From: Escherichia phage Gluttony
Reading direction: 5' to 3' (one strand)
Sequence record: NC_031113.1
DNA length: 44,513 nt
A program made the translations under genes and the position numbers. Below are positions 3,706 through 34,835 of the stretch, one piece after another. Numbering within the stretch: the stretch's first letter is position 1; each line of letters begins with the position of its first letter. The notes beneath the pieces are model-generated. The model was not told the DNA's origin. It was given only the letters and a program-made list of their open reading frames with translations, and did no database searches.

Positions 3706-5126
3706 TTGCGCGCCTTCTTAGCTTTCATGTATTCCATCAAGTCGTCCTGAATATCCCGCTTACTGTCGCGACGCTCGGCGACCAGTTCGTCCAGTGTTCC
3801 GCGCGCCTGGATAATGTAGACGAATACCGGTCGAGGGTGCCCGGCCTGCATCTGGCGAACCGGCCCGATACGCTCAACGATCTGCGAAAAGTGCTCAAAG
3901 TTCCAGGTATCGGAGAAGATTGCCAGGTGATGACCGCCGTCCTGCAAGTTAAGGCCGTGGCCTGCCGATGCCGGGTGTGCAAACATGATGGGGATCTCAC
4001 CCCTGTTCCACGCTTCCATATCCTTATTGCCCTGCTTACCTTTACCCAACGCAACGCCGTGCGGAAATTTCTTCTTAAGTCGTGCCAGGTCATGCTTATA
4101 CTGATACGCAACGAGCAACGGCGCGCCGTTCAACTCCTCTACGATACTCTCCAGCGCGTCCAGCTTCGCGTCGTGAATCTTCACCCACTCGTCGGTCCGT
4201 TCGCCGTCTTCGTCCACCTTATACACGGCCCCGGATGCAAGCTGAAGGCACTTAATTGTCTTCGACGCCGCGTTCGCCGCTTCCACTGTTCCGCTTTCCA
4301 GTTCTGCAAATAGCTCGCTTTCAAACTGGTCATAAATCTTACGCGCTTTCTTCGGCAGGTCCACAACAACCGGCGTATAGATTGGCTTGTCGCACCCGAA
4401 GTATTCCGCCGCGTCAACGGTGAGGGATACATCTGACAGACGTTGTTGTATCTCTTTCTCGGAGTTCTTTAGCGGAGCGTGCTGCATAGTGAAGCTGCTA
4501 GGCTTAACAGGCTTGCTAATGAACCAGCGGTCGGTAAATGCCTTATAGCTACTGCCGAGGCGTTCGCCACCGTCGACAAACCACGTCTGACCCCATAAGT
4601 CTTTTAGCCCGTTTGGCGCTGGTGTGCCGGTAAGGTTAATCCAGCGCTTGACGTGTTTATGTGCAATCGCTGCCAGTGCGCGGGCGCGCTTGCTCCCCTG
4701 CTTGCTACGATAGCCTTTCAGCTTAGTCGATTCATCGGCAACAACGACCGTAAAGGGCCACGCATCGCCGTAATAGTCGACCAGCCACTCAACCACATCA
4801 TAGTTAACACAAACCACGTTAGCGTCGCTCTCCAGCGCTGCAATGCGGTCCTTCTCTGGACCAGTGCCGTCTACTACCAGCAGGGCTGGGAAGCGCCATT
4901 TCTCCTGCTCCGGGGGCCAGGTGCCGGACGCAACGCGCAGCGGGGCCAGCACCAGTACGCGGTCCTCCTGGTTGGACAGGATACCCGTCTGGAACATTTT
5001 ATTCAGCGCCCACATTGTCGCGCCGGTTTTACCCGATCCCATTGTCGCCCATATATTACATCGCTTATGCTTGAGGATGAACGCGGTTATCAACTTCTGA
5101 TATTCGCGGCGTCGGAATCGTGCCAT
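3702..5126 (-). CDS. Superfamily II (SNF2/DEAD-like) DNA helicase
   Basis: Walker A MGSGKTG, DEST box, helicase C motif HPASAGHGLNLQ; start placed at MARF (5126) after a GGCGGA RBS. Confidence 0.8.
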   Translation of the reverse strand: MARFRRREYQKLITAFILKHKRCNIWATMGSGKTGATMWALNKMFQTGILSNQEDRVLVLAPLRVASGTWPPEQEKWRFPALLVVDGTGPEKDRIAALESDANVVCVNYDVVEWLVDYYGDAWPFTVVVADESTKLKGYRSKQGSKRARALAAIAHKHVKRWINLTGTPAPNGLKDLWGQTWFVDGGERLGSSYKAFTDRWFISKPVKPSSFTMQHAPLKNSEKEIQQRLSDVSLTVDAAEYFGCDKPIYTPVVVDLPKKARKIYDQFESELFAELESGTVEAANAASKTIKCLQLASGAVYKVDEDGERTDEWVKIHDAKLDALESIVEELNGAPLLVAYQYKHDLARLKKKFPHGVALGKGKQGNKDMEAWNRGEIPIMFAHPASAGHGLNLQDGGHHLAIFSDTWNFEHFSQIVERIGPVRQMQAGHPRPVFVYIIQARGTLDELVAERRDSKRDIQDDLMEYMKAKKARK

Positions 5127-5130
5127 ATCT

Positions 5131-5364
5131 TTATTCCGCCTTTTTCCAGACTTCAGTTTCACTGTTCCAGTTCCTTTTTGTGGCGTCGTAGTTGGTGGCG
5201 TGTCCGACGTGGACACCGGTAGCCCGGAAGCTCTTAAATTTTTGCCAGCACACCGTCAACGGCAGCGGATCATTCATGCCTGCGATAAACCATACGCGAT
5301 CGCCCGGTTTACATTCGCCCAGCTTGGTGAGTCGGTAATGTTCTTTCATCGTCATGTCTCCCAA
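5131..5364 (-). CDS. Hypothetical protein, 77 aa
   Basis: ORF track. Confidence 0.4.
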   Translation of the reverse strand: MGDMTMKEHYRLTKLGECKPGDRVWFIAGMNDPLPLTVCWQKFKSFRATGVHVGHATNYDATKRNWNSETEVWKKAE

Positions 5365-5885: not shown

Positions 5886-6514
5886 TGTCGGCTTTTCCTT
5901 ACGGCAGCGATGGCAGGTCCGATAAACTTCTTCATTTCGTCCGGGGTAAACCGATCCCCGCGGGCTATGTTGCACTCTACGCAGCACGGCACGCAGTTAT
6001 CTTTCGTATGGCCTACTGCGTTGTCGAGTCGGTCCGCGCCATTGTCGCCGGTGAATCCGCAGTATGCGCACGGCTGAGAAGTAAGGCGCAGCACGTCCTC
6101 TGTAGTAAGGTCGGTGTTTAGCCCCTTCCTTTCGTCTGCCTTACGGTACTGAAAGAGTTTATAGTAAGCGCGGATCTCTGGTGTCCGGTGGTTGTACTCG
6201 CGGCGTGACTTATTAGCGCACGATCGGCATTCTTTACGAATATGTGACCCGTTTGCTTGGCTTCCTGGCCGGAAGTTTTCCGGCGTGAGCGGCTTGCGCT
6301 CACCGCACGTACGACATGTTACGATCTCCCCGGTGTACTCTCGCCATACTTCTCTCGGCGGCGCGCCTCTTTCCTTATCCCGTCTCTCTTTCTTATATGC
6401 CGCCATGCATTTGGCGCACCACGACTGGCCCTTGTTGAAAGCGGACTCATCTTTACCCGTATTACAACGCCCACAATGTTTCATATACACCTCGAAAAAG
6501 AAAACGCCAGACAA
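5882..6514 (-). CDS. HNH endonuclease with N-terminal zinc-finger repeats
   Basis: CAYCGF...GH...N..CCVECN HNH-type motif. Confidence 0.7.
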   Translation of the reverse strand: MSGVFFFEVYMKHCGRCNTGKDESAFNKGQSWCAKCMAAYKKERRDKERGAPPREVWREYTGEIVTCRTCGERKPLTPENFRPGSQANGSHIRKECRSCANKSRREYNHRTPEIRAYYKLFQYRKADERKGLNTDLTTEDVLRLTSQPCAYCGFTGDNGADRLDNAVGHTKDNCVPCCVECNIARGDRFTPDEMKKFIGPAIAAVRKSRQ

Positions 6515-6550: not shown

Positions 6551-8842
6551 CTACTTGCGGTAGCGATACATGCAATCGCCCTCTGCGGCAAGTGGGAAGC
6601 CTTTCGCCCAAATAGGCAGGTCGCACATCAGCGCGCAAAGCTCCTCTGTCGTGTAGTCGTCGGTGTCCGGCACTTCTGTGATCAATTCATCATGCACCGA
6701 TAGAACGATTTCATAGCCCGCAGCTTCAACGCCAGGCATTGACCAGGCGAGAATATCACGGCACAACGCCTGTACTATGTTCTCCGTCAGTTTGCCGCCG
6801 TAGGTATACTGGAAGCCCCACTGGCGCGTCGTCTGATTCTCGCCCTGATATTTAATGCGGGTGCTGGTGCGTTTCTTGCCGGTATCTTCGTCGATCTCGG
6901 TCGTCACTGACAGCGCAATGCCTGGATAACTCATAATACGCCCCGACGGCAACTCAATTTTCAACCACCACCCCGCGGCGTTCGGGTCGTCGCGTTCCTC
7001 GTCGAAGGTTGGGTCATGCTTCGCCTTCGTGCGGACTATCTTGAGCGCTTTCTTACCATCCGGGCGAACGTTCGCGCCAGCCCAGTACGCTTTGCCAGGA
7101 TTGCGGATTGCACACAACACCGCGTCCTCAAGCTCGGCCCAAAAGGCTACCGTCTTCGGGTGAGCCTCGCGCCACATGCGTTTAATCGCATCACACGTAA
7201 GCCATACGTTTTTCGGCAGTATGTAAGTCGGGCGCTCGTCCTTCTTGCCAGGCTTTGGCGGTCGCTTCGCTTCGTTAATGCGGGCGTACTCATAACCCCG
7301 TTTAGCCGCTGCCCAAATGTGATCGGGGAATGTGCCCTTCATGACGTCCGCCATCGCGTAAAGGTCGAGGCCCAGGTTTTTAGCGAACTGCAAGAACGCC
7401 GCGACGCCGCCACCATAGCCCAGCCCCAATTCGCACGCCTTACCGATCTGGCGTAAGTCCTTGCGGTTAGCTTTAATGTAGTCCGGGTCCAGGCCGAACA
7501 TCTTACCGGCAGTCTCACAATAGATATCGCGACCGGCCTTAAACACCATTAGCGCGGTTTTCTCGCCTGCGATCCAGGCAAGTCCACGCCCTTCCACGTT
7601 GGAGTAGTCCGCTACGACAAACTTCTTGCCCTTAGCCGGGATAATGCACCCGCGAACGGTCGAGGCTGTTAGCTTAGATATGTCATACGCCCAGTGCGCG
7701 GTCCCGCGTAACAGGGAATTGATGCCGTTGGTGAGCATGTGCGACCGGACCCAAAAAGCAACGTCGCTCTCGCCTTCGCGGCGCTTAATCTTCCCTTCGT
7801 GATCGTCGCTATACTCGCCGCGTGCCAGGTTTTGAGGCTGGAAGCCTTTACCCGCCCAGCGCAGCGTGCGCTTTGCACCACCATACTGAAGACACCCACG
7901 GCGGCGACCATCTGCGGATAAGCCGTTAACTAGCGGATTGTACTTAGTCGATGCCGTTGATGACGCTCCGAGGCGCATTTCTATAAGCGCTTTGCCTTCG
8001 TCGGGGAAGTCCGGGTCTTCAAGCAGGTCGTTAAGTGTGGATTTCTGCGCGTTGTGGATCGTGAACGCCGGGGCGATATCACGTAGGATTGGCAGGAAGT
8101 CATTGCCGGTCAGCTTACCGCCAAATCGCTCCCAGGCTTCCTCTTTCAATTCTTCCTTATGCGCCTGTACCGCTTTGATCGCAGCGCGCGCCAGGTCAAC
8201 GTCCACGTAGAAGCCGCGGTCGTTAATCAATTGGTCGATAAGCAGGATTTCGTCTTCCTTCGGCGTATTACCCCAGTCCGGTATGCGCCAATAGACTTCC
8301 CTCATCGCGATGATATCCAGCGCGGCATAGCGCAGGAATTTAGCCCACTCCTCGGGGTGCGTCTTGCGCGTGTAGCGGCGGATTTTGTAGGTCTTAGGGG
8401 TAGGCTTACAGAATCGTTTAATCAGCGCCTTGCCTGCCTTATCCTTCGCGTGCTCTGCGTCAACGCCCAGCACCTGACACTGCATATCGAGGCTACCCGG
8501 CAGCGCGTGCCGAAAGGCCATAATCATGGTATCTTCGATCTGGCTTACCGGCAGATCTATACCCCACTTCTCGCGAATAACAAGGCGGTCAAACAGGAGG
8601 CCGTTAGCCATCACTATTTTTGCTTTCTTGCGGGATACACGGCGGAGTGCCTTGCGCAGTTCACGCGGCATTGTTGGGGATTCAGTGGCATCCCATGTCT
8701 GCACGCGGCCTTCGTCGATGGCGTAGGTGCAAATCATAATCTCGGTGGTTTGGTGCTCTGCGTAGGCGTACGCCCCTACTTTCTTCAGGTCCACCCCGCT
8801 AAATGTCTCGGTGTCGAGAAACAGACGTTCGAAGTCTTTCAT
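6551..8842 (-). CDS. Family A DNA polymerase with 3'-5' exonuclease domain
   Basis: Exo I LDTETFS; motif A DYSNVEGR; motif B RKDLRQIGKACELGLGYGGG; motif C VHDE. Confidence 0.9.
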   Translation of the reverse strand: MKDFERLFLDTETFSGVDLKKVGAYAYAEHQTTEIMICTYAIDEGRVQTWDATESPTMPRELRKALRRVSRKKAKIVMANGLLFDRLVIREKWGIDLPVSQIEDTMIMAFRHALPGSLDMQCQVLGVDAEHAKDKAGKALIKRFCKPTPKTYKIRRYTRKTHPEEWAKFLRYAALDIIAMREVYWRIPDWGNTPKEDEILLIDQLINDRGFYVDVDLARAAIKAVQAHKEELKEEAWERFGGKLTGNDFLPILRDIAPAFTIHNAQKSTLNDLLEDPDFPDEGKALIEMRLGASSTASTKYNPLVNGLSADGRRRGCLQYGGAKRTLRWAGKGFQPQNLARGEYSDDHEGKIKRREGESDVAFWVRSHMLTNGINSLLRGTAHWAYDISKLTASTVRGCIIPAKGKKFVVADYSNVEGRGLAWIAGEKTALMVFKAGRDIYCETAGKMFGLDPDYIKANRKDLRQIGKACELGLGYGGGVAAFLQFAKNLGLDLYAMADVMKGTFPDHIWAAAKRGYEYARINEAKRPPKPGKKDERPTYILPKNVWLTCDAIKRMWREAHPKTVAFWAELEDAVLCAIRNPGKAYWAGANVRPDGKKALKIVRTKAKHDPTFDEERDDPNAAGWWLKIELPSGRIMSYPGIALSVTTEIDEDTGKKRTSTRIKYQGENQTTRQWGFQYTYGGKLTENIVQALCRDILAWSMPGVEAAGYEIVLSVHDELITEVPDTDDYTTEELCALMCDLPIWAKGFPLAAEGDCMYRYRK

Positions 8843-9067: not shown

Positions 9068-9841
9068 TTAACGGCGGCGACGTTTACGTGGCGCTTCGTC
9101 TTCGTCGTCGTCCTCATCTTCGTCATCGCGTGGTTTACGACGTTTGCGAGGTTTTTCGTCGTCGTCGTCATCGCTGCGCTTGGACTTTTTGGACTTACGC
9201 GGCTTGTCGTCTTCGTCATCGTCATCACGACGTTTTGACTTTTTGGACTTACGCGGGCTTTCATCTTCGTCATCGTCGCCCAGGTCTTCGTCGGAACATG
9301 AAGACCCGCCACCGCCGAAGGCTTCTCCGTCATCGCGGAAGCGCATACCCAGCAGACCACAGCCTAAGCCTTTGCCGTTGGTATTGTTCCAGGCCCAAAT
9401 ATCTAAGGAAACGTTGCAATAGCAACCGGAATAGATTTCCTTCCCTTCGATTTCGTCGCCGTCGATGGTCAGACCCTGCTCCGTCTGCTTCTCGCCTTCG
9501 GAAGTCTGGATGATCGGCTGTTTGAATGATTTGGCATTGATGTACAGCTTTCCTTCAAACTCTTCCGTCACTTCTTCACGCTCGTCACCATCACGAACTG
9601 CACATTCTTTCGAATCCTGTGCGTAGTGGCGGTCCATCCACTTATCGGCGTTCTTTTCAGACTTCAGCTTTTCGGTGAGCACTGCGCGTGCCGCCGCTTC
9701 CACTTTGTCCACCTGCGGATCTTCTTTATCAAGAATAATCACCGCACGATATGCCGGTTTTTGTCCATCCTGTTTAGGGGTGTCACGCTCCCAAATTTTC
9801 GGGAAGCATACACGTACATTTTTCAGGTTGACTTTAGCCAT
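9068..9841 (-). CDS. Phage ssDNA-binding protein (DUF2815-like) with alternating acidic/basic C-terminal repeats
   Basis: MAKVNLKNVRVCFPKIWE N-terminus with GAGGAA RBS; C-terminal DDDEDE/PRKSKKSKR repeats. Confidence 0.55.
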   Translation of the reverse strand: MAKVNLKNVRVCFPKIWERDTPKQDGQKPAYRAVIILDKEDPQVDKVEAAARAVLTEKLKSEKNADKWMDRHYAQDSKECAVRDGDEREEVTEEFEGKLYINAKSFKQPIIQTSEGEKQTEQGLTIDGDEIEGKEIYSGCYCNVSLDIWAWNNTNGKGLGCGLLGMRFRDDGEAFGGGGSSCSDEDLGDDDEDESPRKSKKSKRRDDDDEDDKPRKSKKSKRSDDDDDEKPRKRRKPRDDEDEDDDEDEAPRKRRRR

Positions 9842-9937
9842 TTTCCAATTCCTCATTTCACATGTATCGGGGTTATTAGAAGCCACCCCGTCCGGCTTGG
9901 TTGCTAATGTACTTGGTTGCGTTTCCGCGGTCAAGTG

Positions 9938-10171
9938 TTATTTATTAAAAAGTTTTAAAATCAGGTCGAGATATTTGTGCAGCCACACCAGTGGCGGGCG
10001 GTGCACGTTGTTTTCCATCCAGTTCAAACAGGCTTCGTTATAGCCGTCGTCCCATAAGCGGGATGGGTGGCGAATCATCCAGGCCAGCGCCAGCAGACCG
10101 CCGCAGGTATGTACTACGAATCCCAGTGCCGCCAACGGCAGCACCATAATCATTGCCAGAATCTTATTCAT
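9938..10171 (-). CDS. Small membrane protein
   Basis: Two hydrophobic segments (ILAMIMVLPLAALGFVV, GGLLALAWMI). Confidence 0.4.
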   Translation of the reverse strand: MNKILAMIMVLPLAALGFVVHTCGGLLALAWMIRHPSRLWDDGYNEACLNWMENNVHRPPLVWLHKYLDLILKLFNK

Positions 10172-11594
10172 CGTTTAAATCCTCGTCGCTTGCTTCTTGC
10201 CATTCCGGGCGCGGGTCGTCAACTGGTGCCAGGACTGGTTTCGCAGGTGCACGCGTGATTTTATCTTGCAGCTTCGCCCACACTTTCGGTTTCTCATCCT
10301 TCAGCACCTTCTCGGCATCAGTAGGGCTGATTAATGATTCCTTGTACATCAGGTCGCGCTTGATCCGGGCCGTTGTGAATACAGCGATAACTTCGCTTTC
10401 ATCCTTCCACTTACGCGCACCTTCACGACCTGCTACCAGCTTCAGGCCCAGCGCTTCGCCGTCACCGGCTAACACTGCTTTGAATACGGCAGCCTCGATC
10501 GCTTTGATGTGCTGGCGCATGGTTTCCAGACCGTCGTAAGCCTTTTTCAATTCTTCCGTGGTCATTGCACCGGCTGGCGCTTCTTTCTCGCCACGCTTCG
10601 CACGTCGGGCCGCTTTCCGGGCTTCGCGGGCCATGTTCCGGTCGTGGTTTTTGCATTCTTCCTCGGTGGCAATGCTTACATCGTCGCCCAGGTCTTCGTC
10701 GGTTGCCGTTGGTGGCGTCATTGTGTCGATGGCGGCTTTAGCGCGGGCACTACATTGATCCGCAAATCGACACCACTGACACGCATCGGCGCTCGGACGG
10801 AAGTCTGCACGGGTGAGATTCTTCTTACCCTTAGCGAAGGCATCCAGGGCGGCTACTGCGCGTTTTGCTGCGTACTTGGCGAAGATTTCCAGTGCTTCCA
10901 CTGAAATATCCCACTCCGATGCGCCGCCGCAATACGGCTGGAAGATGACCAGGCGAACGGTGGTAATGTCGTACATCTTTTGCAGCTTGCGCAGCAGACC
11001 GAGCGCATACAGCATAAGCTGTTTGTTCTCTTTCGCCTCGACCTTATGGCGTCCGGTCTTCAGGTCGCCAACAATCAGCATGTACGTGCCGTCGGTCTTC
11101 TTCATGACCATAACCATATCGGCAGTACCGAAGGTTTTAATCACCTCGCCGTCAATCTCGTAGCCTTTGTGCAGGACGCGTGTCAGATCCGCGCGCATCT
11201 CGAGCTGAACAAACTCCGCCACTTCGAGGAGCGGTCGCCAGTGGTCGATGTACGCGTCGCACTGTTTCACCATATCGTCGTTGACCAGTACGCCGCCTTT
11301 CGGTGCTTTCGGGTGTGCCTTTACTGGCCCCTTTCCTTCGTTCTCGACGTAACACCCTTTATACGTCTTTGCGGTTATCAGCTTTTCACCGGCGATAATG
11401 CGGTTTAGCACGACTTCAGATACGGTGTGCATACTCGTACCGTTAATCGCGGCTTGCCCGGATTCGTTTGGGATATCTTTTTCTACCACCAGAGCGGCAG
11501 GGCAACCCATCCATTTTTTAGCACCGGACGGCCCGAGTAATGAGTGTTCGGTATTGCTACCGGATTGCGTCTTACGTTTTGGTTTAATCGCCAT
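10164..11594 (-). CDS. PD-(D/E)XK (RecB/Cas4-like) exonuclease with Cys cluster and C-terminal extension
   Basis: GTADMVMV, IVGDLKTG, QLMLYA motifs; CQWCRFADQC cluster. Confidence 0.65.
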   Translation of the reverse strand: MAIKPKRKTQSGSNTEHSLLGPSGAKKWMGCPAALVVEKDIPNESGQAAINGTSMHTVSEVVLNRIIAGEKLITAKTYKGCYVENEGKGPVKAHPKAPKGGVLVNDDMVKQCDAYIDHWRPLLEVAEFVQLEMRADLTRVLHKGYEIDGEVIKTFGTADMVMVMKKTDGTYMLIVGDLKTGRHKVEAKENKQLMLYALGLLRKLQKMYDITTVRLVIFQPYCGGASEWDISVEALEIFAKYAAKRAVAALDAFAKGKKNLTRADFRPSADACQWCRFADQCSARAKAAIDTMTPPTATDEDLGDDVSIATEEECKNHDRNMAREARKAARRAKRGEKEAPAGAMTTEELKKAYDGLETMRQHIKAIEAAVFKAVLAGDGEALGLKLVAGREGARKWKDESEVIAVFTTARIKRDLMYKESLISPTDAEKVLKDEKPKVWAKLQDKITRAPAKPVLAPVDDPRPEWQEASDEDLNDE

Positions 11595-12981: not shown

Positions 12982-13311
12982 ATGAATATCAAAGAAGCAA
13001 TTGAAGTGTTATCTAATGCAATCCGCGGCGAAGCGGGTAAATCCTGGTATTACACAAATGCGGTGGATACTCTGTTATTTGAAGTGTCCAGATTATCGCG
13101 TGCTGAGAAGGAGCTTACCGCGAAGCTGGAATTGCTCAACGGCACGGCAGCAAGCAAGCTGCAAAAACACAATGAAGAAATGGAAGAATACAAAAAACAG
13201 GTTATCCGTCTACGTGAGGAAGGTAAATCCTGGGCGATGATTGCCGAGTTGACCGGAATTAATCAGAGCACAGTGCGCTCCTGGGTACGCAATAATAAAA
13301 CTTCTAAGTAA
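12982..13311 (+). CDS. HTH DNA-binding protein, putative transcriptional regulator
   Basis: C-terminal KSWAMIAELTGINQSTVRSWV helix-turn-helix; coiled-coil middle. Confidence 0.5.
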   Translation: MNIKEAIEVLSNAIRGEAGKSWYYTNAVDTLLFEVSRLSRAEKELTAKLELLNGTAASKLQKHNEEMEEYKKQVIRLREEGKSWAMIAELTGINQSTVRSWVRNNKTSK

Positions 13312-13321
13312 GGCCACGGCA

Positions 13322-15586
13322 ATGAGCTTAATTAAATTCGCTGTAACAAGACCCGCTAAAAAAGGCGAAAAAGCCAGGGCGGAAAACTTCCAGATGACGA
13401 CCGATGAATTTTTCGAATTTATCAAAGATGCGAAAGAGATATCGTCGGTGCATATCAACAAGACGGAAGATAAAGCCGAGTATGCGCGCCGCAAGCGTAA
13501 GGCCGATGGCATCGTAGCGTATACCAGTGACGGCTTACGCCGCAAGACCAGTGCGGTGGACCGCTCGATCCTGTTCTTCGATATTGACCGTACCGACACC
13601 CGCACCCTACGCCGCTGCCGTAAGGCTTTCATCGACGCGGGGCTGGAGCACGTATTTCACACCACAACCGGCGACCGCCACCCGCTGAAAGGCGGCACGC
13701 GTTGCGCTCGTTTCCTGGTGCTCACCGACAAGCCTGTACCGGCTGAAGACCTGGGCCGCGTCCAGTACGCACTATTACACCAACTGGGCCTGTCAGATGT
13801 GGACTTCGATGATTGTACGAAAGACACAAACCGCCTGATGTACCTGCCACACCAGCAGTCTGTTATTAAGTGCCACTACGGCAAGCGTGCCCGCGTCCGT
13901 CGTCTGCTTCGCCTGGCGGATAAGTTGGGCGTGGAGAAGGAGGAAGTACGCCGCGAGCTTACCCAGGGCGACGACGCAGTGGCAGACGGCATTCTGGACT
14001 GGTGCTTCCAGGCAGGATTCGAGGAGTTATCTTCCGGTCGCGGTTATGAAGTGCCGTGCCCGAACGAACATCTGCACAGCGGCGAAGGGTCGACGGCTAT
14101 CATGGTCAAGGATGGCGAGATCCGTTTCAAGTGTATGCACACCGGCAACGAGTGTTGCTCGGAACTGAACAGACACCAGCACCTGGCGCTACGTCTTATC
14201 GGGATCCCGGACCACCTGAACGTCGAGCCGCACAACATGTCACGTAAGCAAATCGCCGCCATCCTTCCGGGACTGGACGATGAGGAAGTGGAATCGTGCT
14301 ATGAACATATCGTTGATGCGGTCGGAGACGGCGACGAGTACGGCGTGTGTACTGATGCAGACCTGGACAACGAGCCGGTCGCACTGTTCAGTAAGCACGA
14401 CCCGATCATCGAAGGCCTGGTCAACTTCAAATCGACCTGGTATCTCGCCGGTGAGTCGAACATTGGCAAGTCGTTCTACGTGCTGGGCCAGATGGCGTCA
14501 GTATCTGCCGGTATTCCGTTCGGCGGTGCGAAGGTCGTCCAGTCTCATTGCTTCTATTTCGATGCGGAAGGTGGTGAGGCCTCCAACCAGCGTAAAGAAG
14601 CACTGCAGATCAAATATGAGCACGACCTGGACAAGCTGCACATTATCGATCTGCAATCACGCGGCTGGGATATCACCAGCAAATCCGGCTTGCGTGAAGT
14701 TATCAGCTTCATCAACCGCACCGCTAACGGCGAGCCGGTTGGCCTGGTGGCGTTCGACTCACTCAACCAGACTGTTGCGCTGCGGTCCGCCGATGCAAAA
14801 CCGTTCGACGAGAATAACGCCAGCGATATGGGTGAAGTGGTCAAAGCGCTGAAGGCCATTGCGGAAAATACAGGCGGCAGTGCGGGCGTCATCCACCACC
14901 CGGCGAAGGGTGCAAACGGCAGCAGATCTCCCCGTGGGTCCGGCGCGCTGCATGGCGCTGTCGATTCTGCGTTCTTCCTGGAACAGCCGGACGACAACCA
15001 GCCAGGTCAACTCAACCTGTATCACGAAAAATCCCGTAACGGCATCAAGCAAGCGCCGCGCGGCTTCGTCCTGCTCAAGTGCAAGGTTAAGGTGGATCTC
15101 CGCAAGTCCGAGGCGTTCGAAGCCCACCAGTCCACCAGCACCGGGCCGGACTTCGGTGACGTCGTTGCCGGTTGGGACGTCAAGCCGATTGCCTCCACGC
15201 CACGCGACGAGACTCTTTACCTCGTACCGGTCGCCCTGGCACCGTTCGCCATTGAGCAGGCAAAGGCCGCTGGCAAGGCCGCAGTTAAGGAAGAGAACGC
15301 CGCAGGACCGCGCAACGAAAAAGAGAAAGTGCTTTATGCAGCGCTGGAAAAACTGATGGAAGATAACCCGGACCATACCGGATTCAGCAAATCGGCAATT
15401 GTCCGCCAGGCTGGGCTTGCGAAAGGTGGCACATCGACGAAGGCAATTGACGATATGGTCGAGCGCGGCGTGCTCGGTTTTTATACCGATCCGCACACCG
15501 GGGCCATCTATGGGTCGTCGAATATCGTCATCAAAACGAAGATACCCATCACGCTTTCGGCGACCGATGACGACTTAAAAGATTAA
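13322..15586 (+). CDS. Primase-polymerase (AEP-like) fused to a RecA/DnaB-like ATPase; replication initiator candidate
   Basis: FFDIDRTD acidic motif, Cys/His zinc cluster, Walker A GESNIGKS, Walker B FYFDAEGG. Confidence 0.7.
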   Translation: MSLIKFAVTRPAKKGEKARAENFQMTTDEFFEFIKDAKEISSVHINKTEDKAEYARRKRKADGIVAYTSDGLRRKTSAVDRSILFFDIDRTDTRTLRRCRKAFIDAGLEHVFHTTTGDRHPLKGGTRCARFLVLTDKPVPAEDLGRVQYALLHQLGLSDVDFDDCTKDTNRLMYLPHQQSVIKCHYGKRARVRRLLRLADKLGVEKEEVRRELTQGDDAVADGILDWCFQAGFEELSSGRGYEVPCPNEHLHSGEGSTAIMVKDGEIRFKCMHTGNECCSELNRHQHLALRLIGIPDHLNVEPHNMSRKQIAAILPGLDDEEVESCYEHIVDAVGDGDEYGVCTDADLDNEPVALFSKHDPIIEGLVNFKSTWYLAGESNIGKSFYVLGQMASVSAGIPFGGAKVVQSHCFYFDAEGGEASNQRKEALQIKYEHDLDKLHIIDLQSRGWDITSKSGLREVISFINRTANGEPVGLVAFDSLNQTVALRSADAKPFDENNASDMGEVVKALKAIAENTGGSAGVIHHPAKGANGSRSPRGSGALHGAVDSAFFLEQPDDNQPGQLNLYHEKSRNGIKQAPRGFVLLKCKVKVDLRKSEAFEAHQSTSTGPDFGDVVAGWDVKPIASTPRDETLYLVPVALAPFAIEQAKAAGKAAVKEENAAGPRNEKEKVLYAALEKLMEDNPDHTGFSKSAIVRQAGLAKGGTSTKAIDDMVERGVLGFYTDPHTGAIYGSSNIVIKTKIPITLSATDDDLKD

Positions 15587-15700
15587 AATTTGCGCGCATT
15601 GGTCGCCGATATGGGGATTCCCATATCGCTAGACGATTAAATTTTGCGCGCATTGGTTGCCATTTTGAGTGTTTTTATCTGGTCGTATTGGTTGCCGTGT
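15584..15700. repeat. Direct repeats TTAAA(A)TTTGCGCGCATTGGT(C/T)GCC x2 flanking the palindrome CGATATGGG-GATT-CCCATATCG
   Basis: Read directly downstream of the primase-helicase stop; a third ATTGGTTGCC copy near 15687. Confidence 0.6.
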
Positions 15701-15744
15701 AGTGTGAATATAGTGAATAGTTATGCAGTTTTATTGCATAAAGT

Positions 15745-15902
15745 AAGCGGGACAAAAAGCGGGACAAACAAGGGGCGGGACAAAGCGGGACAGCACCCCC
15801 GTCCCGCCACGGATGGCGCGGCTTCCAGAGGAGCGGGACAGCGGGACAGCACCCCAGTCTTTCAGACTAGACGGGGGTCAATGGCCCCCCTCGTCTGAGA
15901 CT
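15745..15902. repeat. GCGGGACA iteron-like array A with 3' hairpin module; putative origin or regulatory cassette
   Basis: At least six GCGGGACA copies at about 11-bp spacing, then CAGTCTTTCAGACTAGACGGGGG...CCCCCCTCGTCTGAGACTG; near-identical to 31965..32124. Confidence 0.6.
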
Positions 15903-16062
15903 GAATAAAATCCGGGGATTGCAAAATACACGGCAGCATGATGCTAAGTGCGGTCGTCGATGAACTAGGCAACCAATGCAGGTTGTATTATGCTGAGTGA
16001 AAATGCGGTTTGCAGTCACAGCAGATAGCGATCAACTTTTTCATGCGCGTGATTAATATTGG

Positions 16063-31810: not shown

Positions 31811-32124
31811 AGCGGGACAAAGCGGGATGTCCCGTTTTGTCCCGCCTCTGTAAAACTGCATATCTAATCACTCCCATTGCATAAACCAAAAGAGGGACAG
31901 GCGGGACGTCCCGTTTTGTCCCACCCCATAAATGTGCATATCTATTCGCATTTCGTGCATAAAACAAACGGGACAAAAAGCGGGACAGACCAGGGGCGGG
32001 ACAAAGCGGGACAGCACCCCGTCCCCGCCAGTGCTGCCGCTGGTTTCAGCCGATCGGGACAGCGGGACAGCACCCCAGTCTTTCAGACTAGACGGGGGTC
32101 TGGCACCCCCCTCGTCTGAGACTG
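31811..32124. repeat. GGGACA iteron-like array B with palindromic units and the same 3' hairpin module as array A
   Basis: About 14 GGGACA copies including palindromes GGGACAAAGCGGGA-TG-TCCCGTTTTGTCCC; 32055..32124 near-identical to 15833..15902. Confidence 0.65.
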
Positions 32125-32192
32125 CATAGGGTTTGTTTGAAATTCGCTGATACAATGTCAATCGGCAACTGAATAAAAAAGGGGACTGCATA

Positions 32193-34835
32193 ATGGCAGA
32201 TCAGGCAGCAGGCATCACGCTAAAGGCGGATGTTGCACAAATCAGAACGGCGAATACTGTGCTTGATTCATTCGCACAGAAATCCGAGAACACAGAAAAC
32301 AAGGTTAAGAAATTAAACGACACCCTCGGCAAATCCAAAAAGGTGACGAGTGACGCCGCGGGCGGAATGGAGAAGCTGGCGACTGAATCGCAGCGCGCTG
32401 CCGATGGCATGACGAAACAGGAGCGACTTGCCAACAGGTTAGGCATGTCGACCAAAAACCTGGGCTTTGCCTCGCGTAACGCCGCATTCCAGTTACAGGA
32501 TATCGCAGTTACGCTTGAGATGGGGATGCCGGTACACCGCGTTATGCTTCAGCAGTTACCGCAGTTAACTGGGGCGTTCGGGGGATTGGGTAACACGCTG
32601 CGTTATGTGGCGGGATTCCTCGGCCCAGTAGGGATCGGCATTGCCGCACTAACGGCAACGTTAGGCGTCGGCGTGGCAGTTACGACCCGAGCAGAAAACC
32701 AGGTCGCAGCGCTTAACAAGACGCTGGCGCTGTCGGGTAACATTTCCGGCCTCACCGCTAACCAGATCCTTGTGCTGTCTGAGAACGCTGAGCGCATGGG
32801 CTGGTCATTCCGCAAGACGCGAGACACCATTCAGGCACTGGCGGCGGCGGGCGTTAAAGCGGGTGCGGACTTCGGCGCGCTGGCGAAAGTGGTGAATGAC
32901 TTTGCGAAGGCGTCTAATCAGCCGATCTCTGACGTGGTTGAATCCATCTCAAAATTGTCGAACGACCCGGTCGGTGGACTGCGCGCACTGGCGGACCAGT
33001 ATCACGTCGTTACCGAGGCGCAGATCCAGCAGGTGCAATCACTAGTGACGGCTGGTCGAGAAACCGAAGCGGTGGCGCTGGCGAACAAAACCGCCGCTGC
33101 GTCGTTCTCCAGCATGACCAATGAGATCAAGTCCAACATGGGTACGCTCGAGCGGTCTATGAACGTCGTCACATCTGCAGCCAAATCCATGTGGGACGCC
33201 ATCCTGGATGTAGGACGCGCGCAGTCATCGAATGAGTCCGAGATGAAAGCGCGTGAATCCTTGCAGCGCATGACCACGGCTTACTATGCCGAGATGAAAG
33301 CGGTAAACGCTGCCGGTGGGGTGATGACCGAGGCGCAGAAAGCGCGTATTAACATGCTTTACAGCGAACTGGTCGCCCAGGAAAAGGTGGTGGCGTCGCT
33401 CACCCTGCGCAACCGCGCCGAGCGAGACAACGCCAGCGCCGCTGACGAAGCAGCAAAGGCGAACGAGGAGGCAAACCGCACCGCCCGCGACCGCGCCGCG
33501 TTTGAGAAGGAGTACGCAACCAACGCGAAGCGGCGAGCCGACGAGATCGCCCGCCTCAATTTGCTGAATAAGCGCGGTGTTATTAACGAGAAAGAACTAG
33601 CCGAGGCGGTGAAGCAGGTCAACGAGCGCTACAAAGACCCAGCACCGAAAAAGGCGGCGGCAATTCGAGTCGATGCCGGGCTGAAAATGCTGGAAGTCGC
33701 GCGAAGCGAATTAGCCCAGCTTCGTGAGTCTGGAAAGCAGATCGAAGCCAACGCATCGACGCAGACCCGCACGCAACGCGCGCAAGCGGCCCTTAACAAG
33801 CTGATCGCGGACCATGAACAGTTAATCGCGGCGAGCAAAGAAAGGGCGCTGACGGCAGCAGAAAAGCAGCAAATGGCGGAGTTCGAGTCGGTTAAATCGG
33901 TACGCGAGCAGATCGTCGAAGAAGCCAAATTGCTGGACGCGAAAGAGAAGCAGATCAAGGCACACGCCCAGGTCGAAGCATTCATCAAGAACCAGAACGC
34001 CGAGCTAAAAGCCACCGCGGCGGGCTATGCGCTTTCTACTCGCGAAGCGGCTAACCTGCGCGAAGAGTTGCAGCTAATTGACCGCCTTCAGCGTGCCGGT
34101 GCTAACGATACTGATATTGACAAGGCGGTGTATAAGCTGCGTGAGGTTCAGGAAGCACAGACCGGTGCTAACGCCTCATTATGGGATGGATTCAGTCGCG
34201 GGCTTCGCGATAGTGTGGATGAAATGGGTAACGGATACACGCAGATGTCGTCACTCACAAAATTCACGTTCGGTGCTATGCAGGACACGATGAACGAGTT
34301 TTTCGAGACTGGCAAGCTGAACGCAAAAGATATGGTTAAGTCCATTCTGAGCGAATTAATAAAGCTGGCTACCTCGCAGGCGTTCAAGTCCATCGTTAGC
34401 GCTTTCGGTGGCGACGGCGGCAAAAACGGATTGTTCGGCGCTATCTTCTCGGGCCTCACTAAGAATGCGGACGGCGGAGCGTACACCGGAGGCAATCTCG
34501 CGGCCTATTCGGGGCAAGTGGTGAGCCAGCCTACCTTTTTCAGTTATGGCGTCCAGGCGTTCGCTAAGGGCGCTGGGTTGATGGGTGAGGCTGGACCCGA
34601 GGCCATCATGCCACTGAAGCGCGGGCCGGACGGGAAACTGGGCGTTGCCGCGTCTGGCGCAGGCGGTGGTATGGTCGTGACGACTAACGTTTACACGGGG
34701 ACCGGTAAGACGGATACCAGTGTTGGCGGGCCGGACCCACGTACCGCGCAGGCGTTCGGCAAGCAAATCACCGAGGCGGTGAAGGCCGAGATCGTGAAGG
34801 CGATGAAACCGGGTGGTGTACTTTACAAACGATGA
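32193..34835 (+). CDS. Tape measure protein
   Basis: 880 aa, Ala-rich with coiled-coil regions, downstream of the chaperone pair. Confidence 0.85.
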   Translation: MADQAAGITLKADVAQIRTANTVLDSFAQKSENTENKVKKLNDTLGKSKKVTSDAAGGMEKLATESQRAADGMTKQERLANRLGMSTKNLGFASRNAAFQLQDIAVTLEMGMPVHRVMLQQLPQLTGAFGGLGNTLRYVAGFLGPVGIGIAALTATLGVGVAVTTRAENQVAALNKTLALSGNISGLTANQILVLSENAERMGWSFRKTRDTIQALAAAGVKAGADFGALAKVVNDFAKASNQPISDVVESISKLSNDPVGGLRALADQYHVVTEAQIQQVQSLVTAGRETEAVALANKTAAASFSSMTNEIKSNMGTLERSMNVVTSAAKSMWDAILDVGRAQSSNESEMKARESLQRMTTAYYAEMKAVNAAGGVMTEAQKARINMLYSELVAQEKVVASLTLRNRAERDNASAADEAAKANEEANRTARDRAAFEKEYATNAKRRADEIARLNLLNKRGVINEKELAEAVKQVNERYKDPAPKKAAAIRVDAGLKMLEVARSELAQLRESGKQIEANASTQTRTQRAQAALNKLIADHEQLIAASKERALTAAEKQQMAEFESVKSVREQIVEEAKLLDAKEKQIKAHAQVEAFIKNQNAELKATAAGYALSTREAANLREELQLIDRLQRAGANDTDIDKAVYKLREVQEAQTGANASLWDGFSRGLRDSVDEMGNGYTQMSSLTKFTFGAMQDTMNEFFETGKLNAKDMVKSILSELIKLATSQAFKSIVSAFGGDGGKNGLFGAIFSGLTKNADGGAYTGGNLAAYSGQVVSQPTFFSYGVQAFAKGAGLMGEAGPEAIMPLKRGPDGKLGVAASGAGGGMVVTTNVYTGTGKTDTSVGGPDPRTAQAFGKQITEAVKAEIVKAMKPGGVLYKR

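Follow-up and report, generated by a model that had tools for sequence, protein, structure and literature searches.

Module organisation of the probable replicative primase-helicase of Escherichia phage Gluttony and a candidate origin downstream of its gene

Results

The gene and its neighbours

The window analysed here is the whole 44,513-nucleotide stretch of Escherichia phage Gluttony (NC_031113.1). The following genes were used to place the primase-helicase in its surroundings.

6551-8842, - strand: full-length family A polymerase (PolA)
9068-9934, - strand: ORF containing an Enc34/gp2.5-type SSB
12982-13311, + strand: 109-aa helix-turn-helix (HTH) protein, counterpart of HK578 gp45, with Pfam HTH_23 and Sigma70_r4_2 at aa 65-105
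13322-15586, + strand: whole primase-helicase ORF, from the ORF list, ATG to stop, 754 aa, ortholog of HK578 gp46

The frame at 13322-15586 is far beyond chance and runs exactly from ATG to stop, as the earlier note on this DNA had it. By megablast, Escherichia phages Lust and Pride carry a gene of 100% identical DNA, annotated there as "DNA primase/helicase". The protein is 87% identical to gp46 of phage HK578, with shared synteny, and PHROG 3228, "replicative helicase-primase", aligns with all of it (E = 0). Megablast found the gene in 155 phage records, and tblastn with the N-terminal 350 residues returned 242. It is the already known replication primase-helicase of a common group of E. coli phages, Dhillonvirus, and because public records carry the same label, the primase-helicase reading is correct but ordinary. 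The AEP (archaeo-eukaryotic primase) domain of HK578 (aa 1-190) is a different allele, with 57% identity to that of Gluttony, and the remaining protein is 97% identical.

A gap of 10 nt lies between the stop codon of the HTH gene and the ATG of the primase-helicase, and Salmonella phage FSL SP-031 likewise has an HTH gene upstream. In HK578 the corresponding genes have been described as the gp45-gp46 operon; a point mutation in gp46 and a deletion within the gp45-gp46 promoter each escape P2 OLD, from which the authors conclude that there is a connection with the initiation of replication (bioRxiv 10.64898/2026.07.10.737580). The HK578 record also carries promoter features and annotates gp40 as 'Gp2.5-like'. 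In Gluttony, sigma-70-like promoters lie in the divergent early region at about 12.78-12.93 kb, genes for a DUF2800 nuclease and an SNF2 helicase lie close by, and the family A polymerase is indeed a separate gene, as had been claimed.

The N-terminal domain

The features assigned within the 754-aa protein are as follows, all on the + strand.

13322-13900, +: AEP catalytic domain, aa 1 to ~193, assigned by fold
13574-13588, +: AEP motif I, FFDID (D87, D89)
13688-13711, +: AEP motif II region, KGGTRCAR, aa 123-130
13802-13849, +: AEP motif III (D163) and motif IV (R171-L), followed by PHQ
14057-14158, +: putative Cys/His zinc-binding module, aa 246-279 (C246, H252, C271, H273, C278/279), conserved columns
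14351-14374, +: acidic linker motif TDADLDNE
14384-15136, +: RepA-type (SF4, RecA-fold) hexameric-helicase ATPase domain, aa 355 to ~605
14450-14473, +: Walker A, GESNIGKS, aa 377-384
14747-14764, +: Walker B, VAFDSL, aa 476-481
14891-14911, +: HH (H3)
14933-14950, +: RGSGAL (H4 / Arg finger)
15308-15541, +: C-terminal winged-helix domain, aa 663 to ~740
15563-15583, +: acidic C-terminal tail TDDDLKD, the last seven residues

The AEP catalytic fold was found in the N-domain of the predicted structure, a full-length AlphaFold model built from a 17-sequence alignment only and the one on which the structural evidence rests; its best structural match was the PrimPol of cyanophage S-2L (PDB 6ZP9), of the All3500-like AEP family. 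A single-sequence AlphaFold model of aa 1-350 was unusable (pLDDT 44). The motifs were judged by published definitions (PMC5862659). Motif I, hhhDhD, is present as ILFFDID (aa 83-89). Its two aspartates, which belong to the FFDIDRTD (aa 85-92) earlier singled out as an AEP-like acidic motif, are invariant in all 17 relatives, at identities down to about 16%, and lie opposite E85 and D87 of S-2L. Motif III, hD, is F162-D163; D163 is likewise invariant and lies opposite D146 of S-2L. The stretch RLMYLPHQ aligned with RVMRL..PHQ of S-2L, and R171 of motif IV is kept in 14 of the 17 relatives and replaced by Asn in HK578.

Motif II is less regular. Profile-profile alignment sets the invariant R130 opposite S-2L H118, ie at the canonical His position. 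The alignments disagree, the single-sequence one giving another register in which T115 is paired with S-2L T112 and H120 is close by; H120 is His in just 11 of 17 relatives. Motif II (sxH) serves nucleotide binding, and some families have Gln, Arg or Lys there; replacement of its His by Arg or Lys is known in the DR0530-like family (PMC5862659). Together with the three metal-binding acids D87, D89 and D163, the basic residues K58, R73 and R130 are invariant among relatives down to about 16% identity, the pattern that an active site under constraint leaves.

Searches with curated models were empty at this end of the protein. No primase HMM in Pfam or NCBIfam, Prim-Pol (PF09250) included, matched aa 1-350, and searches of the PDB by sequence and by profile gave nothing for this region and no AEP. 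Comparison with S-2L by hhalign gave weak probabilities of 5% and 19% (pairwise E 0.007 and 0.001), with power limited because the profiles were shallow, the homologue search having yielded one protein for the N-terminal 350 residues and four for the S-2L seed. The earlier note had proposed a domain HMM search as the check on its reading, with absence of a primase domain as the refutation. That search found the helicase domain and missed the primase, and would have misled, because the fold, the motifs and the domain architectures all indicate an AEP; "no primase domain" is rejected on the same grounds. Membership of BT4734-like_N (PF08800) was considered and set aside, its matches being sub-threshold, in three relatives only, with E 0.005 or worse.

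As to architecture, relatives join the same N-domain to AAA_25, D5_N/DUF5906/Pox_D5, VapE, DUF3987 or PriCT_2, and such variety of helicase partners has been published for the AEP families All3500 and PrimQH (PMC5862659). Many phage proteins with Prim_Pol/PriCT_2 and AAA_25 aligned over the full length in BFVD. The domain may belong to the All3500-like family (PrimPol-PV1 supergroup), which is marked by sequence clustering, a motif IV Arg and variable helicase partners (RepA, DUF3987, VirE, D5): the best structural match, S-2L PrimPol, is a member, the spectrum of partners agrees and R171 is kept in 14 of 17 relatives, but the higher hhalign probability is just 19%. These phages are not named in the text or supplements of Kazlauskas 2018.

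The zinc module, helicase and C-terminal domain

The Cys/His positions of the zinc module, a cluster that the earlier note had also seen, are kept in the 11-14 relatives possessing it, and the AlphaFold model has a three-stranded sheet at aa 242-270. The pattern of conserved residues suggests that the module may bind metal. PriCT_2 takes its place in relatives P0015 and P0016. Between module and helicase lies TDADLDNE, with D-L-x-D-E kept family-wide. It belongs to a recurring acidic motif that has five copies, all in replication and recombination proteins. The tail TDDDLKD, found at the extreme C-terminus in all close relatives, is another member.

The claim of a RecA/DnaB-like ATPase with Walker A and B holds. 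Pfam AAA_25 matches aa 357-531 with E 3.5e-20 (72.9 bits against a cut-off of 27), and Walker A, Walker B, H3 and H4 are all present on a RecA fold, which places the domain with the SF4 helicases of RepA/DnaB type. By analogy with these, the protein would form a hexameric ring and unwind DNA 5' to 3'.

The C-terminal region is modelled as helix-helix-helix-strand-strand. Its profile matches MarR/SlyA structures weakly (E 0.009-0.05), and family members have weak matches to Pfam RPA_C, HTH_24, HTH_27 and MarR_2. Neither the winged helix nor the conserved acidic tail figured in the earlier note. For AEP-helicase-winged-helix proteins a role of the winged helix in origin recognition has been predicted (PMC5862659).

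The downstream iterons

The gene is followed by a non-coding stretch with these features.

15587-16009, no strand: non-coding stretch after the primase-helicase gene, candidate origin, with ATTGGTTGC copies, iterons and hairpin
15712-15727: GTGAATAGTTATGCAG, within the stretch after the gene
15747-15848: six direct GCGGGACA iterons
near 15801: inverted GTCCCGC
15856-15902: 47-nt hairpin

The adjacent iteron array of the earlier note is confirmed. The window has 13 copies of GCGGGACA against 2.1 expected, and six of them lie at 15747-15848, in the 530-bp gap after the gene. HK578 has the same array after gp46. FSL SP-031, whose primase-helicase is 34% identical to that of Gluttony, has at the same position a different iteron, GGGGGAGA, all five exact copies of which lie no more than 90 bp after the gene and which occurs nowhere else in its genome. 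In the relative Bas70 there is no such array after the primase-helicase gene; TGTGAATAG, which adjoins the iterons in Gluttony, lies in promoter-like sequences there. A second iteron and hairpin element, 87% identical, is located in the tail module of Gluttony at 31965-32135. Origin recognition by the protein at the downstream GCGGGACA iterons is plausible because lineage-specific iterons directly follow the gene in two genera.

Several other candidate signals came to nothing. As a window-wide motif GTGAATAGT is not enriched (7 found, 6.6 expected, one mismatch allowed). A scan of the + strand after the gene gave no intrinsic terminator, and the hairpin at 15856-15902 is without a T-run. The fold of 15735-15905 is just marginally more stable than that of shuffled sequences (z = -1.78). 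A turn of the cumulative GC skew near 13 kb is uninformative as an origin marker because gene orientation also switches there.

Discussion

We read the product of 13322-15586 as the replicative primase-helicase of the phage, a single polypeptide with four modules, and put the probability of this reading at roughly 0.87. In order the modules are an AEP primase (aa ~1-190), the Cys/His zinc module with a short helical region (~240-335), an SF4 helicase of the RSF1010 RepA type (~355-605), and a winged helix (~663-740) with the acidic tail. The analysis shows which folds the domains are assigned to and in what order they lie, that the residues for catalysis and NTP binding are conserved, and that the protein is kept across phages and has an operon partner. 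Hexamer formation, polarity, the chemistry of the primers (RNA or DNA), zinc binding and contacts with partners are what we infer for such a protein.

On the pattern of RepA, DnaB and T7 gp4, a ring of ATPase domains would form on the template of the lagging strand and open the duplex 5' to 3' at the expense of ATP. The tethered AEP domain would then make primers on the displaced strand, with the zinc module aiding template recognition, and the primers would be extended by the family A polymerase of the phage while the Enc34/gp2.5-type SSB coats the single strand. The net result would be a T7-like replisome with an AEP primase in place of the Toprim primase that gp4 carries.

Comparison with known systems

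HK578 gp46 and the other members of PHROG 3228 (Dhillonvirus, Kagunavirus, Guernseyvirinae and related siphophages) represent the same gene, with no substantial difference beyond the AEP allele. The fusion of an AEP to a RepA-like helicase is a recurrent phage architecture (Kazlauskas 2016, PMC4889955). Going by its description there, gp43 of corynephage BFK20, like similar fusions, has an N-terminal AEP primase and a RepA-type SF4 helicase as in Gluttony; the AEP domain of the Gluttony family is missed by Pfam Prim-Pol and the other curated models. The S-2L PrimPol combines PriCT-2 with a VirE-type helicase and is the only polymerase candidate of that phage, whereas Gluttony has the zinc module, a RepA-type helicase, the winged helix and a separate PolA, and sequence similarity between the two is marginal. 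In RSF1010 the helicase RepA, the primase RepB' and the iteron-binding initiator RepC are three proteins, and in Gluttony these functions are, or may be, on one chain. T7 gp4 has a primase of Toprim/DnaG type and no C-terminal winged helix.

The resemblance to P4 alpha noted earlier holds for the logic of the protein and fails as kinship. In both, one polypeptide has a primase, a helicase and a C-terminal winged helix, which in P4 alpha is the origin binder, and the P4 origin is made of iterons. P4 alpha, however, has a DnaG/Toprim-type primase and an SF3 helicase (PMC4889955) and is therefore an analogue and not a homologue. Pfam finds neither Toprim nor zf-CHC2 in the Gluttony protein, its N-domain is an AEP by fold, and its helicase is AAA_25/RepA-like SF4 and not SF3, D5_N/DUF5906 occurring only in distant relatives of the N-domain. 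Homology is thus ruled out, both enzymatic folds being different. Similar in layout is the archaeal plasmid pRN1, where a small repressor-like gene (ORF56) precedes an AEP primase-helicase-winged-helix gene (ORF904) and the origin is just downstream; it differs in the SF3 helicase of ORF904, in an origin that has no iterons and consists of a long stem-loop, and in its use of host polymerases.

Role in replication

What the protein does beyond priming and unwinding can be read in several ways. There is a real possibility, somewhat short of an even chance, that it works only at moving forks, like T7 gp4, and that initiation is set by another agent, for example transcription from the divergent early promoters, the HTH protein encoded upstream, replication that depends on recombination, or a factor of the host; in that case the iterons would bind a regulator or mark transcription termination. 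The T7-like set of parts (PolA, gp2.5/Enc34-type SSB, SF4 helicase-primase), the sigma-70-like promoters of the divergent region, the duplication of the iteron element among the late genes and the position of TGTGAATAG inside promoter-like sequences in Bas70 are all consistent with this, but it leaves unexplained both the family-wide C-terminal winged helix and the lineage-specific iterons directly after the gene in two genera.

These two features are what a self-contained initiator would account for, a possible reading that extends the earlier note and that we hold tentatively: in addition to its work at the fork, the protein would bind the GCGGGACA iterons through its C-terminal winged helix, the ring would assemble and melt the DNA there, and the AEP domain would lay the first primers, after the manner of P4 alpha or pRN1 ORF904. 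The domain is present and its class is predicted to act in origin recognition (PMC5862659), the iterons cluster directly after the stop codon, and those of FSL SP-031 occupy the same place with another sequence. HK578, with a divergent gp45 and AEP allele and a 97%-identical zinc-helicase-winged-helix part, retains the GCGGGACA iterons; iteron identity therefore tracks the C-terminal part and neither gp45 nor the AEP domain. The minimal replicon of pRN1 has the same layout of repressor gene, primase-helicase gene and downstream origin. Against this, the matches behind the winged helix are weak, none better than E 0.009, many further proteins conserved between HK578 and Gluttony could read the iterons, the second element at 31965-32135 fits a regulatory or termination role equally well, Bas70 is without the array, and the skew turn does not discriminate.

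A wider proposal, which we regard as doubtful in its entirety, joins three parts. The winged helix may read lineage-specific iterons after its own gene, of which Dhillonviruses have a second, 87%-identical copy in the tail module, making the protein an initiator in the style of P4 alpha and pRN1 within a T7-like lytic replisome. The AEP domain may represent a family outside the curated models, with an invariant Arg at the site of the motif II His, and may be exchanged among phages as a cassette with the upstream HTH gene. The acidic motif [ST]D-x-DL, which the protein has in common with the exonuclease and the SSB, may dock all three proteins on one replisome hub.

That the AEP domain is a true primase-polymerase with substantial DNA synthesis (DNA primers, origin extension or translesion), in analogy with the NrS-1 and S-2L PrimPols, is unlikely. 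The PrimPol that comes closest among solved structures has DNA polymerase activity, and 12 of 17 relatives have an aromatic residue at the position of the S-2L steric gate, Tyr63; in Gluttony, however, this position is Gly63, which would not exclude rNTPs. Bulk synthesis by the domain is moreover unnecessary, priming alone being enough, because the phage encodes a full-length family A polymerase. An inactive relic, with a structural or DNA-binding role and priming left to host DnaG, would fit the empty primase HMM searches and the atypical motif II but is very improbable given the invariance of D87, D89, D163, K58, R73 and R130 in distant relatives.

Implications

For the replicative primase-helicase as read here, the value of the analysis is mainly one of annotation hygiene, and knowledge of phage replication is unchanged. 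Because the AEP domain is invisible to Pfam and NCBIfam, automated pipelines give it the name 'ATP-dependent helicase', 'AAA family ATPase' or 'hypothetical protein', and a curated model for the domain would correct several hundred phage annotations. Genetic work has recently connected HK578 gp46 with the activation of the P2 OLD defence, and for this the residue-level domain map and the candidate origin offer concrete mutants.

Gene, identity and distribution

The 754-aa ATG-to-stop ORF claimed in the earlier note was located in the ORF listing at exactly 13322-15586 on the plus strand, and all of the motifs attributed to it were present (FFDIDRTD, a Cys/His cluster, Walker A and Walker B). 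The primase-helicase observation is confirmed as real, far beyond chance, and the domains were read correctly. The window is the genome of a Dhillonvirus (an HK578-like E. coli siphophage). Escherichia phages Lust and Pride carry the gene with 100% DNA identity, annotated as 'DNA primase/helicase'. Megablast placed it in 155 phage records, while tblastn with the N-terminal 350 aa returned 242, including Kagunavirus-like coliphages and Salmonella Guernseyvirinae at 34-39% identity. PHROG 3228, 'replicative helicase-primase', was matched end to end (E = 0). HK578 gp46, 87% identical at the protein level, is termed 'helicase-primase' in a 2026 preprint, in which a gp46 point mutation and a deletion of the gp45-gp46 promoter each escape P2 OLD (bioRxiv 10.64898/2026.07.10.737580). 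A literature search for biochemistry on HK578 gp46-type primase-helicases found none. The protein is already known, in that public records carry the same functional label and its architecture is of a known kind. In many records the same gene is nevertheless labelled 'ATP-dependent helicase', 'AAA family ATPase', 'replicative DNA helicase' or 'hypothetical protein', an inconsistency explained by an AEP (archaeo-eukaryotic primase) domain that has no curated model. The upstream helix-turn-helix gene appears as 'transposase', 'resolvase' or 'DNA recombination nuclease inhibitor gamma'. In phage bob the gene is 24 nt longer, and a 155-nt 'repeat_region' is annotated inside its 3' part (5038-5192 of that record).

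Helicase module

The RecA/DnaB-like ATPase was borne out by several searches. Pfam AAA_25 matched aa 357-531 (E 3.5e-20, 72.9 bits against a cut-off of 27), and the sole match in a PDB sequence search, a weak one, was RSF1010 RepA. RepA (1nlf) was also the top Foldseek match of a full-length AlphaFold model built from a 17-sequence alignment (mean pLDDT 75.9). The H1a, H3 (IHHPAKG) and H4/Arg-finger (RGSGAL) motifs are conserved in relatives, and the region is an SF4 RepA-type ring-helicase module. Its nucleotide-binding motifs are:

aa 377-384, Walker A, GESNIGKS
aa 476-481, Walker B, VAFDSL

N-terminal AEP domain

No match to aa 1-350 was found in the curated HMM libraries Pfam and NCBIfam, and a PDB profile search gave no primase for the N-terminal region. 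The primase-domain HMM search proposed in the earlier note was therefore negative, and taking that outcome at face value as grounds for abandoning the primase call would have discarded a correct one. The domain is a predicted AEP primase on four lines of evidence, among them conserved residues, register with an established active site and the architectures of relatives. When 1.84 billion representatives were searched exhaustively with HMMER, it turned up in only 26 clusters. In the 17 of these that were examined, down to about 16% identity, K58, R73, D87, D89, R130 and D163 never vary and T115 hardly does; D87 and D89 lie in the acidic motif FFDIDRTD (aa 85-92), which had been correctly read as AEP-like.

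Alignment by hhalign with the primase-polymerase of cyanophage S-2L (PDB 6ZP9; active-site residues from PMC8065100) was collinear and weak, with pairwise E of 0.007 and 0.001 and probabilities of 5% and 19%. In these weak alignments D87/D89 fall opposite the metal ligands E85/D87, D163 opposite D146, and RLMYLPHQ opposite RVMRL..PHQ. Motif II is atypical: the weak profile-profile alignment sets the invariant R130 at the canonical His position, a register that differs in the single-sequence alignment. In the DR0530-like AEP family this His is replaced by Arg or Lys (PMC5862659).

The partner behind the N-terminal domain is AAA_25 in 12 of the 17 relatives, others having D5_N/DUF5906/Pox_D5 SF3 helicases, VapE or DUF3987, and two carry PriCT_2 instead of the zinc module. 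This is the helicase-swapping pattern of the All3500 and PrimQH AEP families described by Kazlauskas et al., as is the domain order of AEP, PriCT or zinc domain, helicase and winged helix (PMC5862659). BFVD has many phage entries under the names Prim_Pol or PriCT_2 plus AAA_25, and these align over the whole length of the model.

Predicted zinc module, C-terminal winged helix and acidic motifs

The Cys/His cluster was located at C246, H252, C271, H273 and C278/C279, with C246, H252, C271, H273 and C279 conserved in those relatives that have the module; the AlphaFold model places a small three-stranded sheet at aa 242-270, and we infer that the module binds zinc. The last 90 residues, predicted to fold into three helices and then a beta hairpin, include a winged helix absent from the earlier note. 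A profile of this region matches MarR/SlyA winged-helix structures (E 0.009-0.05), and single family members weakly match Pfam RPA_C, HTH_24, HTH_27 and MarR_2.

Two acidic motifs, TDADLDNE in the linker ahead of the helicase and TDDDLKD as the final seven residues, are conserved across the family. Scanning all six reading frames of the entire window for [ST]D[ADEN]D[LI]x[DENK] gave exactly five copies, all in replication or recombination proteins; over 1000 residue shuffles the mean was 0.06 and none reached five.

14351-14374, plus strand, primase-helicase linker (motif scan)
15563-15583, plus strand, extreme C-terminus of the primase-helicase (motif scan)
10680-10703, 10167-10190 and 9272-9295, minus strand, further copies (motif scan)

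Of the further copies, two belong to the DUF2800 exonuclease, TDEDLGDD internally and SDEDLNDE at its C-terminus, and one, SDEDLGDD, to the Enc34-type SSB. In Salmonella phage FSL SP-031, ATDSDLDD ends the exonuclease and EEDDLEN the primase-helicase. The motif may be a common docking peptide for one replisome partner, and can be likened to the acidic tails of T7 gp4 and gp2.5. Past SDEDLGDD, in the stretch 9068-9300 (minus strand), the SSB carries repeats that are alternately acidic and basic (DDDDEDDKPRKSKKSKR...), encoded by 54-nt and 6-nt tandem repeats at 9094-9277, and it ends in RKRRRR; such a tail is unusual for a gp2.5/Enc34-type SSB.

Operon and cassette swap

The primase-helicase is the second gene of a two-gene operon. 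The first, 10 nt upstream, encodes a 109-aa protein with a C-terminal helix-turn-helix, the counterpart of HK578 gp45. Comparison of 12982-13900 with HK578 (7576-8590 of its record) revealed a cassette swap within the operon: identity is 44% for the helix-turn-helix protein and 57% for the AEP domain (aa 1-190), against 97% for the protein from aa 191 on and 94% for the upstream promoter region. The 3' breakpoint falls at the end of the AEP domain, and most Dhillonviruses carry the window's allele.

Candidate origin

The stop codon is followed by a stretch of some 420-530 bp that lacks a convincing ORF and holds six direct copies of GCGGGACA, one inverted copy and a 47-nt hairpin. The primase-helicase may act solely at forks, a reading we put at somewhat under even odds. 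Recognition of this iteron array by the protein itself, via its conserved C-terminal part, is tentative (probability about 0.35). The same array follows gp46 in HK578, beside the 97%-identical remainder and despite the diverged gp45 and AEP domain. FSL SP-031, with a primase-helicase 34% identical, has another repeat instead, GGGGGAGA; its 42-kb genome contains five exact copies (0.64 expected), every one of them in the 90 bp 3' of the gene. In the pRN1 minimal replicon the origin is likewise just downstream of the primase-helicase gene. These comparisons make the conserved C-terminal part a plausible origin recogniser, but phage Bas70 has no such array after its gene, and a second iteron and hairpin copy, 87% identical over about 170 nt to 15735-15905, lies in the tail module (31965-32135).

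This second element is situated between tail genes just upstream of an 880-aa ORF at 32193. A 79-bp tandem repeat (31819-31986) with palindromes such as GCGGGACGTCCCGTTTTGTCCCAC comes before it, the whole region spanning 31812-32135, and the element might serve as another origin, as a site for a regulator or in termination. Other repeats were noted. The 16-nt GTGAATAGTTATGCAG at 15712-15727 is identical in FSL SP-031 (6333-6348 of its record), just 3' of a primase-helicase gene whose protein is merely 34% identical. TGTGAATAG, found twice in Bas70 within sigma-70-like promoters (6436-6490 of its record), fits the DnaA-box consensus, TGTGnATAA, at 8/9 positions; no enrichment of it was found across the whole window. 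ATTGGTTGC has 14 sites in the window (0.57 expected), mostly intergenic and mostly on the strand of local transcription, and probably acts as a promoter or operator of the phage; its analogue in FSL SP-031 is the repeated ATGTTGGCTG. Among the 14 are:

12783, 15652, 15687, 16058 and 16089, plus strand, ATTGGTTGC
991, 2664, 2681, 5623, 26213 and 26227, minus strand, ATTGGTTGC

Relation to known systems

The resemblance to P4 alpha suggested in the earlier note holds as an analogy of logic and not as kinship, because P4 alpha joins a DnaG-type primase to an SF3 helicase (PMC4889955). Fusion of an AEP primase to a RepA-like SF4 helicase is a described phage architecture, as in BFK20 gp43, and AEP with SF4 makes up about 19% of phage helicase-primase pairings (PMC4889955). 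The opposite strand encodes a DUF2800/PD-(D/E)XK nuclease, an Enc34/gp2.5-type SSB, a family A polymerase and an SNF2 helicase. Except for the primase, the replication parts list is T7-like. In function the protein is best pictured as a T7 gp4 in which an AEP has taken the place of the Toprim primase and a winged helix has been added.
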